A DNA stretch of 62,888 nucleotides, taken from positions 1-62,888 of the forward strand of contig JAUNRT010000003.1 of the NCBI GenBank assembly GCA_030535475.1, written 5' to 3'. The notes under the pieces are model-generated. The model was given only the letters and a program-made list of their open reading frames with translations. It was not told the origin of the DNA and ran no database searches. A program made the translations under genes and the position numbers. This DNA is from Weeksellaceae bacterium (lineage in GTDB: Bacteria; Bacteroidota; Bacteroidia; Flavobacteriales; Weeksellaceae). Shown here piece by piece: positions 4,049 through 54,694 of the stretch (the stretch's first letter is position 1; every line of letters begins with the position of its first letter).

Positions 4049-4778
4049 GTCAGGCTCTGATAAATTGAGCATAAACAGCAGATAGATGAGATTTTTTTTA
4101 TTTGGGCGGCACCCTTTTCTGGGCAAAATACTTCAGGTTTTATAGAAATCGGCCAAATACCAGGAAACCACCCCAATCTCAAATTTCCATACATGAAATT
4201 GCCCAGAAAAGGGTCGGTGTACGGCTAATACTCCGCGGTCTTTTGGCTACAAAAAATGCTGCAAAATCGGTTTTCCTTAATCTCTCAACCCGCTTTGCAG
4301 CTTTTTTGTAAGAGCCAAAATCCCTTGCGGGGTAACCGCCTACCACCTGCCGCGGCCAACCGCTAAGGCCATTTTGCTTCGCTTGTAACATTTGGATGTT
4401 TTTATTTTGGTCAATTCTAGATGTTTTTTGTGCATCGGCGATTTTGATAGATTTTCTGCCGTTTCTTGGCACAAAAAGCCCTCATTGACCGTGTGTTCCA
4501 AGTGAGCGTTTATGGTATGGCTTGTAGAGACGTTGTCATGTAACGTCTCTACAAGCAGCGTAACGTTTCTAGGTGCATTGAAATGTCTCTAAGTGTTTGC
4601 GGAAAATGGCCTTGTGGGCTGGCCTAGCCCGGATGCGAGCGGCTATCCTTGCAAAATAGACAGCCCTACAGCAATCTGGTGTGGCGGTGGCCGTAACGAT
4701 AGTGGAGGCAGCCGCGACACCGATTGCTGTGGCTGTATATGAGCAAGATAATAGCGGGCAGCCGGAAATAGCTCCTAA
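4049..4778 (-). repeat. Structured two-module repeat element, copy E1 (A end at left, B end at right; inverted relative to E2)
   Basis: About 90 percent identical by eye to the reverse complement of 16492-17262 outside the hairpin apices. A-module is 4101-4355, the central palindrome 4521-4555, and the B-module about 4572-4778. Confidence 0.9.
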
Positions 4779-16491: not shown

Positions 16492-17262
16492 TTAGGAGCT
16501 ATTTCCGGCTGCCCGCTATTATCTTGCGCATATCCAGCCACAGCCATCGGTGTCGCGGCTGCCTCCACTATCGTTGCGGCCACCGCCACACCAGATTGCT
16601 GTAGGGCTGTCTATTTTGCAAGGATAGCCGCTCGCATCCGGGCTAGGCCAGCCCGCAAGGCCAATTTCCGCAAATACTAATAGACATTTCAATGCACCTA
16701 CAAAAGTTGCGCTGCTTGTACAGACGTTGCATTGCAACGTCTCAACCGAATGTACAGAGGTTGCATTGCAACATCTTTACAATCCATGCCATAAACGATC
16801 ACTAAGAACACACGGTAACAGACGGTTTTGTGTGCCAAGAAACGGTAGAAAAACAATTAAAATTGCCTTTGTACAAAAAACATCTAGAATTGACCAAAAT
16901 AGAAAAATCCAAATTTTATAAGCGAAGCAAAACGGCCCTTGCTGCGGGCCGCGGCAGGTGGGAGGCGGTTACCCCGCAAGGGATTTTGGCTCTTACAAAA
17001 AAGCTGCAAAGCGGGTTGAGAGATTATGGAAAACCGATTTTGCAGCATTTTTTGTAGCCAAAAGACCGCGGAGTAATAGCCGTACACCGACCCTTTTCTG
17101 GGCATTTTTATGTGTATTGATAGGAAATACTTGCGGATTTGTTTTCAAAAATCCAAATGACAAAACACTACCGAATTTTGCCCAGAAAAGGGTGCCGCCC
17201 AAATAAGAAAAATAAGAAATCTGATGAACTTGTTGTTTAGACTCATCTTATCAGAGCCTGAC
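16492..17262 (+). repeat. Structured two-module repeat element, copy E2 (B end at left, A end at right)
   Basis: B-module is 16492-16675. Two tandem palindromes lie at 16722-16742 and 16756-16776. A central unit follows, then the A-module at 16949-17203. A further 60 bp or so to 17262 is shared with E1 only. Confidence 0.9.
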
Positions 17263-21280: not shown

Positions 21281-21475
21281 TTAGGAGCTATTTCCGGCTG
21301 CCCGCTATTATCTTGCGCATATCCAGCCACAGAAATCGGTGTTGCGGCTGCCTTCACTATCGTTGCGGCCACCGCCACACTGGATTTCTGTACGGCTGTC
21401 TATTTTGCAAGGATAGCCGCTCGCATCCGGGCTAGGCCAGCCCTCAAAGGCCATTTTCCAGCGCAGACATACAGT
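21281..21475 (+). repeat. Solo B-module of the structured repeat family
   Basis: TTAGGAGCTATTTCCGGCTGCCCGCTATTATCTTGCGC...CCGGGCTAGGCCAGCCC is collinear with 16492-16675. The long hairpin carries paired substitutions. Confidence 0.9.
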
Positions 21476-35683: not shown

Positions 35684-35863
35684 TTAGGAGCTATTTCCGG
35701 CTGTTGCCTCCAATCTTGTTGGTCAGTGGCAGCAAAAAAATCTCCCTTCAGGCACACTCTCCCGGATGAGCCGGGACCCGGTACCTGCAGGGAGTTTTTT
35801 GCATTGCCACTGCCTGCACAAGGATTTCCGGCACATTCGGGCTAGGCCATACAGCACAAGGCC
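35684..35863 (+). repeat. B-module, subtype 2
   Basis: Conserved 5' block. The closing helix is ATCTTGT/ACAAGGAT (35713-35719 / 35818-35825). A roughly 29-bp hairpin spans 35724-35812, and the 3' block is CGGGCTAGGCC..GGCC. Confidence 0.85.
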
Positions 35864-37038: not shown

Positions 37039-37283
37039 CCGCGGCAGGTGGTAGGCGGCTACCCCGCAAGGTATTTTGGCTCTTGCAAAATGTGAGCGCA
37101 AAGGGGTTGATGCCGCCCAACCGGCAGAAAACCCTTTGCGCCACTATTTTGCAGCCAAAAAACCGCGGAGTAATAGCCGTACAACCGACCCTTTTAATGG
37201 GTTGTAGAAACGCGATAATCGATGTAAATAATGAATACCCGATCCATTGCGTCTCTACAGCACAAAAAAGGGTGCCGCCCAAA
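37039..37283 (+). repeat. A-module of E3
   Basis: Collinear with 16949-17203. It has the CCGCGG...CCGCGG frame, the CC-GCAA-GG hairpin (37064-37071), and covarying helices at 37074-37091/37146-37160 and 37096-37105/37132-37141. Confidence 0.85.
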
Positions 37284-37318
37284 TCATTAAAAAATATTGC
37301 TTGCCTGTGAACGCTGTT

Positions 37319-49365: not shown

Positions 49366-49831
49366 AAAGATTGGGCACACCTATCAGCTACAAACCACCA
49401 CACACATCCCTGGCAGCCTAGAGCAAGTTTGGGAATTTTTCTCCACCCCGCACAACCTAGATCGGCTCACACCGCCAGACATGCCATTTACCATAGAGTC
49501 TAGCACCGGACACCGCATGTTTCCCGGTCAAATAATCATCTACAAAGTTGGCGTTCTACCCAAATATACCACACGGTGGGTCACAGAAATCACCCACGTA
49601 CAGCACCGGAAAATGTTTGTAGATGAGCAGCGTTTCGGACCCTATATATTGTGGCATCATTTACACCAATTCAGAGAGGTGGCAGACGGAGTAGAAATGA
49701 CAGATACCGTACACTATCGCTTACCGTTTGGCGCATTGGGCATGCTGGTGGCAGCGAACTACATACGCAAAAGGTTAGAACACATATTTCATTACAGAGC
49801 ACAAATTATCCAAAAGATTTTTCACTCCTAG
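49358..49831 (+). CDS. SRPBCC family protein
   Basis: About 157 aa, START/polyketide-cyclase-like, at the end of the crt operon. ATG at 49358. Confidence 0.6.
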   Translation: MIRKIGHTYQLQTTTHIPGSLEQVWEFFSTPHNLDRLTPPDMPFTIESSTGHRMFPGQIIIYKVGVLPKYTTRWVTEITHVQHRKMFVDEQRFGPYILWHHLHQFREVADGVEMTDTVHYRLPFGALGMLVAANYIRKRLEHIFHYRAQIIQKIFHS

Positions 49832-49859
49832 ACAGTAAATTTTTTTCTTTTTTTTTTTT

Positions 49860-50065
49860 GCTCAGGACCAGGCTATTGGGCTAAATCCTGCTTGCCATAA
49901 TCTACAAAAGCTGCTGCTGCCGGCACACTCTCAGGCTATCGCCGTGACCCGGTACCGGCAGCAGCGCTTTTGTAATAGATTTTGTCTGCGCACGATACCG
50001 CCCATATCCTTGCCTCAACTTGCCTTCGGCAAGTGTTGGGTAGTAATGGAAGCGGGGAAACTTTC
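49860..50065 (+). repeat. Diverged B-like structured module (related to subtype 2)
   Basis: Preceded by a roughly 20-nt T-rich tract. The hairpin at 49899-49980 has the same loop motifs (GGCACACTCTC ... GACCCGGTACC) as 35751-35785, but different, complementary stems. Confidence 0.7.
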
Positions 50066-50135
50066 CTTTGCAAAATCTTAAATAAATTTACCGAATTCAG
50101 TTTGATAAATGCGGATAATGAAGATGTTATAGCAT

Positions 50136-50165
50136 AAAAAACCGTCTCATATACTTATGAGACGG
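50136..50165 (-). terminator. Intrinsic terminator downstream of the SOD gene
   Basis: The CCGTCTCATA-tact-TATGAGACGG hairpin is followed by U6 on the minus strand. Confidence 0.8.
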
Positions 50166-50197
50166 CTGGATTTTATTGTCTAAAAAGCAGTGCAAAA

Positions 50198-50800
50198 TTA
50201 CTTCGCAGACTTGAAGTGCTCAGCAACTTTCTCCCAATTTACTACATTCCAGAATGCTGAAAGATAGTCTGGGCGCTTGTTTTGATATTTCAAATAGTAA
50301 GCGTGTTCCCACACATCTACACCCAAAATAGGAGCGCCTCCGCAACCAGCTTCAGGCATCAAAGGGTTGTCTTGGTTGGGCGTAGAGCATATTTCCAATT
50401 TCCCATTTACTACACACAGCCAAGCCCAGCCAGACCCAAATCGAGTCTTACCTGCCTCTTCAAATTTCTTTTTGAAATCTTCAAAAGATCCAAAAGCATC
50501 ATCTATAGCTTTTGCCAAGTCACCTTCAGGCTTGCCGCCACCATCCGGGCTCATGATTTCCCAGAAGAAAGTGTGATTCCAGTGACCGCCACCATTGTTG
50601 CGCACCGCTTTTTTACCGCTTCCTTCCTTCACAACTTCTTCTAGAGATTTTCCCTCTAACTCTGTGCCTTTTATAGCATCGTTCAAGTTGTCAACATAGG
50701 ATTGATGGTGCTTTCCATGGTGTATTTCCATAGTTTTTGCATCTATATGTGGTTCCAAAGCATCAAATGCGTAGGGCAATTTTGGTAATTCAAATGACAT
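50198..50800 (-). CDS. Fe/Mn-family superoxide dismutase
   Basis: [32 protein letters not shown] and DVWEHAYYL motifs. Confidence 0.95.
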
Positions 50801-54487: not shown

Positions 54488-54694
54488 AAGTACATTGAAA
54501 TTTGCCGATGAGGCAAAAATGGCCTTTGTGGGCTGGCCTAGCCCGTATGCGAACGGAAATCCTTGCGCGGCAATCTGCCCTACAAACAGTGGGCTGGCAG
54601 GTACTGGAATCCCTTGTGGTGGACGTACCGGCAAGCCCTCTGTTTGTGGCAGATTGCGAGCAAGATTGCAGTGGGCAGCCGGAAATAGCTCCAA
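54488..54694 (-). repeat. Solo B-module, subtype 3, in the lpxD upstream region and in lpxD orientation
   Basis: The reverse complement begins TTGGAGCTATTTCCGGCTGCCC. It has the AATCTTGC/GCAAGGATT closing helix, a roughly 30-bp hairpin, and then ACGGGCTAGGCCAGCCC...GGCC and ATTTCAATG. Confidence 0.85.

Follow-up and report, generated by a model that had tools for sequence, protein, structure and literature searches.

The window, a 62,888-nt stretch from a Weeksellaceae bacterium (GenBank assembly GCA_030535475.1, contig JAUNRT010000003.1, positions 1 to 62,888), carries downstream of its crt operon a hairpin with two loop motifs that recur in the B-module of a second locus, E3, where they are surrounded by entirely different stems. 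The initial annotation regarded conserved loops on swapped stems as the pattern expected of a functional RNA or a protein-recognised fold. The locus raises the questions whether this resemblance is real, to what kind of element the hairpin belongs, and whether its structure matters as RNA or as DNA.

The element downstream of the crt operon

The last ORF of the crt operon stops at 49831, and the leader of the element starts at 49840, 9 nt past the stop codon. From there the element extends to approximately position 50037 and comprises a T-rich leader, a body and a tail hairpin capped by a UUCG loop. The range originally proposed, 49840-50065, holds for the part up to about 50037, while positions 50040-50065 lie outside the conserved element; the strings quoted were all found at the coordinates given for them. 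The hairpin first noticed is the inner part of this larger, framed element, which has the following features, all on the plus strand.

49840-49859, plus strand: T-rich leader (family consensus in type-1 elements TTTTTTATTTGG, located before frame helix P1)
49860-49869, plus strand: degenerate frame remnant GCTCAGGACC, as judged by comparison with intact type-1 copies
49870-50008, plus strand: body with basal helix P3, bulged helix ATCCTG/CA-G-GAT, two long variable helices and apical domain
49900-49911 with 49966-49980, plus strand: stem ATCTACAAAAGC with GCTTTTGTAATAGAT
49913-49923 with 49955-49965, plus strand: stem GCTGCTGCCGG with CCGGCAGCAGC
49922-49956, plus strand: class I apex, with a small variable hairpin at 49933-49945
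49922-49932, plus strand: 11-mer GGCACACTCTC
49934-49943, plus strand: small hairpin GGC-TATC-GCC
49946-49956, plus strand: 11-mer GACCCGGTACC
50012-50016, plus strand: 3′ strand of frame helix P1, GCCTC
50017-50037, plus strand: tail hairpin AACTTGCC-TTCG-GGCAAGTGTT with UUCG loop, terminator-like on this strand

In elements that we call type 1 the order of the parts is leader, 5′ strand of P1 (GNGGC), hairpin P2, body, 3′ strand of P1 (GCCNC) and tail hairpin, and the body proceeds from basal helix P3 through the bulged helix and two long variable helices to the apex. P1 closes a three-way junction and the P2 hairpin is hypervariable; intact copies read GGGNGGC-TCCC-(hairpin)-GGGACC. At the crt operon the T-run is followed only by the ten-nucleotide remnant, with the 5′ P1 strand and P2 both absent. 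This copy is therefore truncated at its 5′ frame, and GCCTC at 50012-50016 is unpaired because its partner was lost. Its base is of the derived type 1, with loops TAAA/TACC and the basal helix AGGCTATTGGGC/GCCCATATCCT. Folded as a single sequence, the body reaches -78.9 kcal/mol on the plus strand (z -4.96) and -88.2 kcal/mol on the minus strand (z -6.58). Further downstream, a separate bidirectional intrinsic terminator of the ordinary type (AAAAAACCGTCTCATA-loop-TATGAGACGG, 50133-50177) separates the element from the convergent minus-strand gene at 50198-50800. For the protein encoded upstream of the element, the homologues in relatives are only 33-53% identical, their synteny is not conserved, and they have no element downstream.

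Each of the two 11-mers forms one side of the tip in a long nested hairpin. Within the window both occur only at 49922-49956 and at 35751-35785 in the E3 B-module (35751-35761 and 35775-35785), in the same order, 13 nt apart at both loci and on different stems, as had been claimed. Sharing by chance has to be considered for strings of this length, since with up to one mismatch 16 of 100 shuffles reach two matches for one of the 11-mers; the mean numbers of matches in shuffles are 0.60 and 0.14. It can be dismissed in view of the genome as a whole (2.46 Mb in 132 contigs, 41% G+C, 96% complete), where 64-67 instances of the bipartite pattern, distributed over both strands, have a fixed spacing and a covarying closing pair, against no match of a backwards control pattern. 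A lack of further homologues, named in the initial annotation as the counter-argument, is thus the opposite of what was found.

The fold was derived from a structure-blind MAFFT alignment of 31 copies covering the conserved core ±52 nt. The consensus comprises 38 pairs in five helices, 31 of which pairs are changed on both sides. Paired cells amount to 95.7% as compared to 74.1% in shuffles, and cells changed on both sides number 231 as compared to 58, values that none of 500 shuffles reached; when the partners are slid by 1-3 columns, pairing drops to 33-44%. With pairing and covariation this far above shuffles, the pattern of conserved loops and swapped stems is real and strong. A covariance model built from this alignment, R1, scores the body at 49870-50008 with 131.5 bits (E 4.4e-32) and the E3 B-module with 133.4 bits, which confirms the former as a diverged member of the same family. 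Since E3 has a base that we call type 2 (see below), the two copies originally compared share an apex class but stand on different base subfamilies.

Family size, tip classes and relation to Flavo-1

The genome search with a covariance model, proposed in the initial annotation, gave 130 matches for R1. Sixty-five of these score 95-148 bits and have the class I apex found at the crt operon, whereas about 64 others score 42-76 bits and combine the same scaffold with other apices. A BLAST census with all R1 matches as queries led to 182 full-length elements, with orientations that agree with R1 in 129 of 129 cases. Only four of the 182 overlap ORFs of at least 150 amino acids, and together the repeats account for about 1.5% of the genome. 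The apices fall into at least six classes, among which class I is the commonest and the only one found on many base types, mostly on the derived type-1 frame.

Class I: GCACACTCTC..GACCCGGTAC, 66 copies
Class II: GCACGTCCAC..GGGATTCCAGTAC, 16 copies
Class III: GCACGTCCG..CTCCAGTAC, 39 copies
Class IV: GGTTTTC..TCAACCC, 19 copies
Class V: long GGTTTGC...CGCAACCC, 8 copies
Class VI: GGCTGCCTCCACT..GTTGCGGCCAC, 19 copies

The window itself holds six members of the family.

4632-4764, minus strand: class VI apex (BLAST census)
16506-16638, plus strand: class VI apex (BLAST census)
21295-21427, plus strand: class VI apex (R1, 50.4 bits)
35698-35837, plus strand: E3 B-module, class I apex on a type-2, canonical Flavo-1-like base (R1, 133.4 bits)
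49870-50008, plus strand: body of the copy at the crt operon, class I apex (R1, 131.5 bits)
54546-54681, minus strand: class II apex, the nearest neighbour of the preceding copy, 4.5 kb away and in opposite orientation

Many members of the family are situated no more than a few hundred bases from a contig end, for example C7:100-238, C22:230-369, C41:52-190, C44:1-137, C97:72-209 and C114:194-332. The repeats, or something adjoining them, seem to break the assembly at many contig ends.

The class I apex is present 66-67 times in the genome and has a conserved core of 35 nt in 66 copies. It starts with the helix GG-C-AC/GT-A-CC, which includes a conserved C·A opposition (G·U on the minus strand), and continues inward with a 4x4 internal loop ACTC/CCCG, a 2-bp TC/GA helix and the small variable hairpin. 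The outermost pair covaries, being G..C (GGCAC...GGTACC) in 44 copies, A..T (AGCAC...GGTACT) in 20 and C..G in one. The loop strand ACTCTC is identical in 65 of 66 copies and GACCCG in 64 of 66, whereas the inner 8-13 nt occur in 34 sequence variants, almost all with the potential to fold into a small hairpin. Pairwise identity between class I copies is 95% over the 22 fixed core positions as compared to ca. 41% over the adjacent 30-nt arms.

On the other strand, the scaffold of these elements is that of the Flavo-1 motif. To our knowledge Flavo-1 has been an orphan since 2010, present in dozens to more than 100 copies per flavobacterial genome and without a known function. The motif corresponds to Rfam family RF01705 (Weinberg et al. 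2010, Genome Biol 11:R31, PMC2864571), which is filed as a small RNA and models the strand opposite to the one used in the initial annotation and here. The E3 copy matches all 76 positions of RF01705 on the minus strand (35690-35847), with 98 nt at the apex; its score of 25.1 bits (E 0.003) is below the gathering threshold of 42 bits. The copy at 49840-50037 gave no RF01705 match at E up to 10, either in a scan of 401 nt or in one of 163 nt with lax filters, and E-value scans of this copy against Rfam yielded nothing beyond generic noise from hairpins (miRNA precursors). Of 4227 Rfam models, only a tRNA matched the window as a whole at gathering thresholds, and the whole genome contains one RF01705 match above the 42-bit cut-off. 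By Rfam's own criterion, the copies described here are not members of Flavo-1. A comparison by eye with the cores of hammerhead, twister and hairpin ribozymes gave no match.

Flavo-1 is found in 16 of 30 relatives at E up to 0.001, 15 of the 16 being above the cut-off, with 3 to at least 97 matches of 75-117 nt in each; carriers of canonical copies include relatives from the same family. Read on the strand used here, their canonical copies have a leader of a T-run plus AGGAGC, a type-2 base and a tip that is a short perfect palindrome. Type-2 copies such as E3 share with Flavo-1 this leader, basal helices with symmetric internal loops and the bulged helix AATC-T-TG/CA-AG-GATT; both are multi-copy, intergenic and confined to Flavobacteriales. 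The difference is in the tip, which in Flavo-1 consists of ca. 15 variable nucleotides and in the present family of ca. 100 nt with three nested helices and a conserved asymmetric core. The fit of E3 to RF01705, together with the matching base in relatives, identifies the scaffold as Flavo-1 and the tip domain as new. The copy at the crt operon is tied to Flavo-1 only through the shared model R1 and the shared apex, although by eye the seed alignment of Weinberg et al. (PMC2864571) resembles the type-1 base too. We regard the identity of the family as secure: it is a branch of the Flavo-1-type dispersed repeats, specific to this lineage and with an expanded tip.

Searches for the class I tip in other sequences gave single matches in five genomes out of 400 from elsewhere in the order, 61 of which belong to the same family, and this is about the control frequency; they gave three chance matches in coding DNA among ca. 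185,000 species-representative genomes, two chance matches in metagenome contigs and none in viral contigs. With 21 candidates scored per genome, R1 had no match in any of 150 genomes of the order other than that of the window. Among the sequences searched, a set that includes no other genome of the genus, the class I tip was not found outside the genome of the window. In the literature we found no relevant REP or MITE description of this family in flavobacteria.

Two observations concern Flavo-1 in the relatives. In three genera of the same family a canonical copy (around position 1500) follows directly after the stop codon of the same gene, the product of which ends in ...VRE, and these copies differ by compensatory changes. 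The insertion seems to have been kept since before the three genera split, which suggests retention at the level of the host rather than pure selfishness. In the complete genome of a relative, canonical Flavo-1 copies on the plus strand cluster at ca. 0.8-1.8 Mb among the matches listed, with minus-strand copies elsewhere; this looks like a replichore or gene-strand pattern.

Frames, A-modules and genomic distribution

Frame helix P1 covaries between elements, with the pairs GAGGC/GCCTC, GCGGC/GCCGC, GAGAC/GTCTC, GCAAA/TTTGC, GCGTC/GACGC, GTGGC/GCCAC and others, and of 38 elements tested 32 have it at a constant offset. The tail hairpin is present in 59 of 60 type-1 elements, ca. 8 nt past the body; it is locus-specific, has a mean folding energy of -15 kcal/mol and is most commonly closed by loops of the UUCG/UACG type. 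P2 may be absent, may have the default sequence TCCCGTAAATACGGGA, or may be a unique perfect palindrome of up to 57 nt, and for these palindromes no source was found elsewhere in the genome. The type-2 frame is simpler, with a T-run and AGGAGCTATTTCC before the body, CGGGCTAGGCC-loop-GGCC behind it and the leader T-run plus AGGAGC described above.

Part of the frame is shared with another repeat, the A-module, of which the genome has about 100 copies. A-modules carry the type-1 leader and P1 frame of the B elements (TTTTTTATTTGGGCGGC...GCCGC) on the opposite strand, with a leader of T-run plus GGGCGGC and a closing strand ending in CCTGCCGC. In the window they are found at the following positions.

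4092-4355: A-module
16949-17225: A-module
37039-37300: A-module

Because the A-module leader is on the opposite strand, the composites E1-E3 of the window are tail-to-tail doublets of the form B>A<, with their leaders facing outward. Wherever an A-module lies within 1.5 kb of a B element, it is downstream of B and in the same annotated orientation (12 of 12). The class IV motif GCAAAAT..GGTTTTC..TCAACCC..CATTTTGC occurs in B-type bodies and in A-modules (37077-37157; C131:51661-51741), which indicates that the two repeat families have sub-modules in common.

The position of the elements relative to genes was assessed with crude ORF calls, using ORFs of at least 150 amino acids as gene proxies. 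The leader-side gene is co-oriented with the element in 103 cases and not in 57 (64%, p=0.0003, median distance 95 nt), where about 47% is expected from the mix of intergenic regions; near-identical copies are not independent and inflate these counts. A cruder count of 130 copies had given no gene-orientation bias and is superseded by this one, which is based on the 182 copies. In the window's genome, element orientation shows no link to GC skew or to the local gene majority.

Neighbouring elements have a marked relation to each other. Most copies are solitary, but those less than 1 kb apart are in opposite orientation in 11 of 11 cases, 10 of these tail-to-tail and usually with partners of different classes. 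Below 5 kb the neighbours are opposite in 26 of 31 cases (p=0.0002), and beyond 10 kb the orientation is random. Short pairs of the order minus-plus bracket 1-3 genes. Doublets are found in convergent, tandem and divergent intergenic regions alike, so that gene 3′ ends do not explain them.

Comparison of near-identical copies shows that bodies and frames can differ in their relationships. Eight loci with unrelated flanks carry class VI bodies that, together with their type-2 frame, are 95-100% identical, the identity starting exactly at the T-run. Six class IV bodies are ca. 95-100% identical from P3 to P3, but each is set in a frame of its own, with no relationship between the loci in P1 pair, P2 hairpin (12-40 nt) or tail hairpin.

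C9:22860-23140: class IV body
C9:20450-20740: class IV body
C14:17060-17340: class IV body
C106:16440-16740: class IV body
C117:2680-2960: class IV body
C10:16520-16820: class IV body

Point mutation cannot produce like bodies in unlike frames, which implies either that bodies are copied into existing frames or that the frame hairpins are remade locally. Copying of bodies could proceed either by gene conversion through the conserved P3 and base or by targeted insertion. Single elements have no terminal inverted repeats, whereas doublets have outward-facing T-run leaders; both flanks are T-rich, which would mask a target-site duplication. In the 96%-complete assembly no match was found for a Y1/RAYT transposase (PF01797) or a reverse transcriptase, and an all-against-all search of the ORF products revealed no multi-copy protein family or multi-copy transposase and no autonomous partner. 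Multi-copy insertion sequences are often missing from metagenome-assembled genomes, and for this reason all these absences are weak negative evidence.

DNA or RNA

The evolution of the stems bears on the level at which the structure acts. In the variable helices of 158 elements we counted 2268 stacked Watson-Crick pairs, 15 G·U pairs and 19 A·C mismatches. Since G·U is as scarce as A·C, a wobble is no better tolerated than its mirror mismatch, whichever strand is read. Pair swaps that need a double transversion (130 cells) are as common as those reached by a double transition via a wobble (100 cells). Together with an orientation unrelated to GC skew, these counts argue for stems that follow DNA-like rules. 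The strands nevertheless differ from each other: in 125 of 129 copies folding is ca. 8 kcal/mol better on the Rfam (minus) strand, and the mismatches are mostly pyrimidine-pyrimidine on the plus strand, i.e. purine-purine on the Rfam strand. This indicates that a folded single strand matters, either as RNA or as single-stranded DNA. The tip loop reads CGGG/GAGU on the Rfam strand.

These results bear on the two options offered by the initial annotation. A functional RNA receives no support from the wobble and transversion counts, from the fact that only 64% of the copies are sense to the upstream gene, or from a published flavobacterial transcriptome, the only one found to mention the motif, in which Flavo-1 has no consistent strand, its matches being sense, antisense or outside transcribed regions (PMC9723704). 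A protein-recognised fold is, judged from the sequence, a plausible candidate for the tip.

The hairpin at 49870-50008 is the body of one copy among ca. 180 T-run-led intergenic repeats, and in this lineage the short tip of a Flavo-1 hairpin has grown into a domain of ca. 100 nt. The mechanism that we favour, and consider probable, is that of a dispersed DNA repeat similar to REP, BIME and BOX elements. Bodies would have spread, or been copied between loci, at the DNA level. The stems may be strictly Watson-Crick through selection for a hairpin in single-stranded or extruded DNA; alternatively, template switching that corrects palindromes may keep them so. The asymmetric tip loops, which are purine-rich on the Rfam strand, may be constant because a protein reads them, and candidates for such a reader would be an enzyme of mobilisation or recombination, or else a host protein that binds structures. 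About two thirds of the copies, including the one at 49840-50037, are located between the stop codon of a gene and a terminator-like hairpin, and are therefore probably transcribed passively as 3′ untranslated sequence.

The main rival to a DNA repeat is a cis-acting RNA element of 3′ untranslated regions, which would be read through from the upstream gene on the plus strand and form a stable structure in front of the tail terminator. It could act as a terminator enhancer, an insulator or a shield against 3′-to-5′ decay, as REP sequences do for E. coli mRNAs, and the tip would bind an RNA-binding protein or RNase. The strand asymmetry points to a single-stranded form, which could be RNA, and the UNCG tail loops on the plus strand and the 64% of sense copies fit a role at the RNA level. 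This explanation is further favoured by the short distance to the co-oriented leader-side gene (103 of 160, median 95 nt) and to the last crt stop codon (9 nt), by the nearly universal terminator-like tail hairpin of type-1 elements (59 of 60, often with a UUCG or UACG loop) and by the orthologous Flavo-1 copies retained directly after a stop codon in three genera. It has to account, however, for the 36% of copies that are antisense to the adjacent gene or face its 5′ end, for stems that do not tolerate G·U, for a plus strand that folds worse by ca. 8 kcal/mol, for the inconsistent strand of Flavo-1 in the published transcriptome (PMC9723704), and for tail-to-tail doublets that occur in divergent and tandem intergenic regions as well. 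On balance we consider such an RNA element, and the terminator-related, insulating or protective action it would have, rather unlikely.

A recombination site, i.e. the substrate of a structure-specific recombinase that loosely resembles attC, with inverted pairs bracketing exchangeable or invertible segments, would explain the conserved base with its variable tip, the almost invariably inverted close neighbours, the short minus-plus pairs around 1-3 genes and the exchange of bodies between frames. We regard it as very unlikely, as there are no arrays of sites in the same orientation, the R/L box consensus of attC is not recognised, the bracketed segments include ordinary housekeeping genes, and selection against deletions would by itself predict avoidance of close direct repeats. 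Even less likely is that each element is a small-RNA gene of its own, transcribed independently from a promoter in the T-rich leader and terminated at the tail hairpin. The layout of leader, closed multi-helix domain and terminator does resemble a small-RNA gene, and Rfam files Flavo-1 as small RNA, but by eye the leader contains no match to the Bacteroidota -7 box TAnnTTTG, the stems do not tolerate G·U, the better-folding strand is the opposite one, and the copy at the crt operon has lost part of its frame while its body is still perfect. Moreover, we know of no precedent for ca. 180 paralogues with unrelated stems as trans-acting RNAs.

Similar to the REP/BIME elements and REPINs of Enterobacteria and Pseudomonas, the family is an extragenic palindromic repeat of high copy number with a bias for gene 3′ ends, mosaic clusters of modules and, among close neighbours, inverted doublets, and in both cases a hairpin in a single strand is presumed to be the active form. 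The present elements are 5-10 times longer, have several helices and non-palindromic conserved loops, and differ in their stems between copies; a cognate RAYT (Y1 HUH transposase) was not found in this assembly. BOX elements of Streptococcus pneumoniae and Correia/NEMIS elements of Neisseria are likewise modular, structured, mosaic intergenic repeats that are often co-transcribed with their neighbours. They have no sequence kinship to the family, are characterised by conserved stems or terminal inverted repeats, and do not have class-specific tip domains on a shared scaffold. With integron attC sites the family shares strand asymmetry, conservation of structure rather than sequence, and a conserved base that carries a terminal structure which varies. 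Unlike attC sites, the elements have no cassette arrays and no R/L core sites, alternate in orientation and are dispersed over the chromosome.

A more far-reaching possibility is that the tips on the Flavo-1 scaffold are swappable 'address' domains read by dedicated proteins, which would make the elements the substrate of an undescribed structure-specific transaction of DNA or RNA. On this reading, which we consider distinctly unlikely, bodies would be copied from locus to locus into pre-existing frames, and P2 and the tail hairpins would be remade or diversified locally. If it were true, Flavo-1-type repeats would be no passive palindromes but a modular system of mobility or recombination that works without a Y1 transposase.

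New in this analysis are the census with its tip classes, the invariant class I core that is absent from all else searched, the frame of P1, P2 and tail hairpin shared with A-modules, the wobble and transversion statistics, the distance-dependent rule of inverted neighbours in this genome and the exchange of bodies between frames. The stems show DNA-like substitutions, close neighbours avoid direct orientation and bodies are exchanged between frames, all of which casts doubt on Rfam's label 'small RNA' for the family. For annotation it is of relevance that repeats covering this share of the genome seem to account for many contig breaks. The genome is informative for the orphan Flavo-1 since it presents one scaffold with at least six tips, and the invariant asymmetric core of class I, kept in 66 copies with otherwise randomised stems, provides a defined and mutable experimental target.
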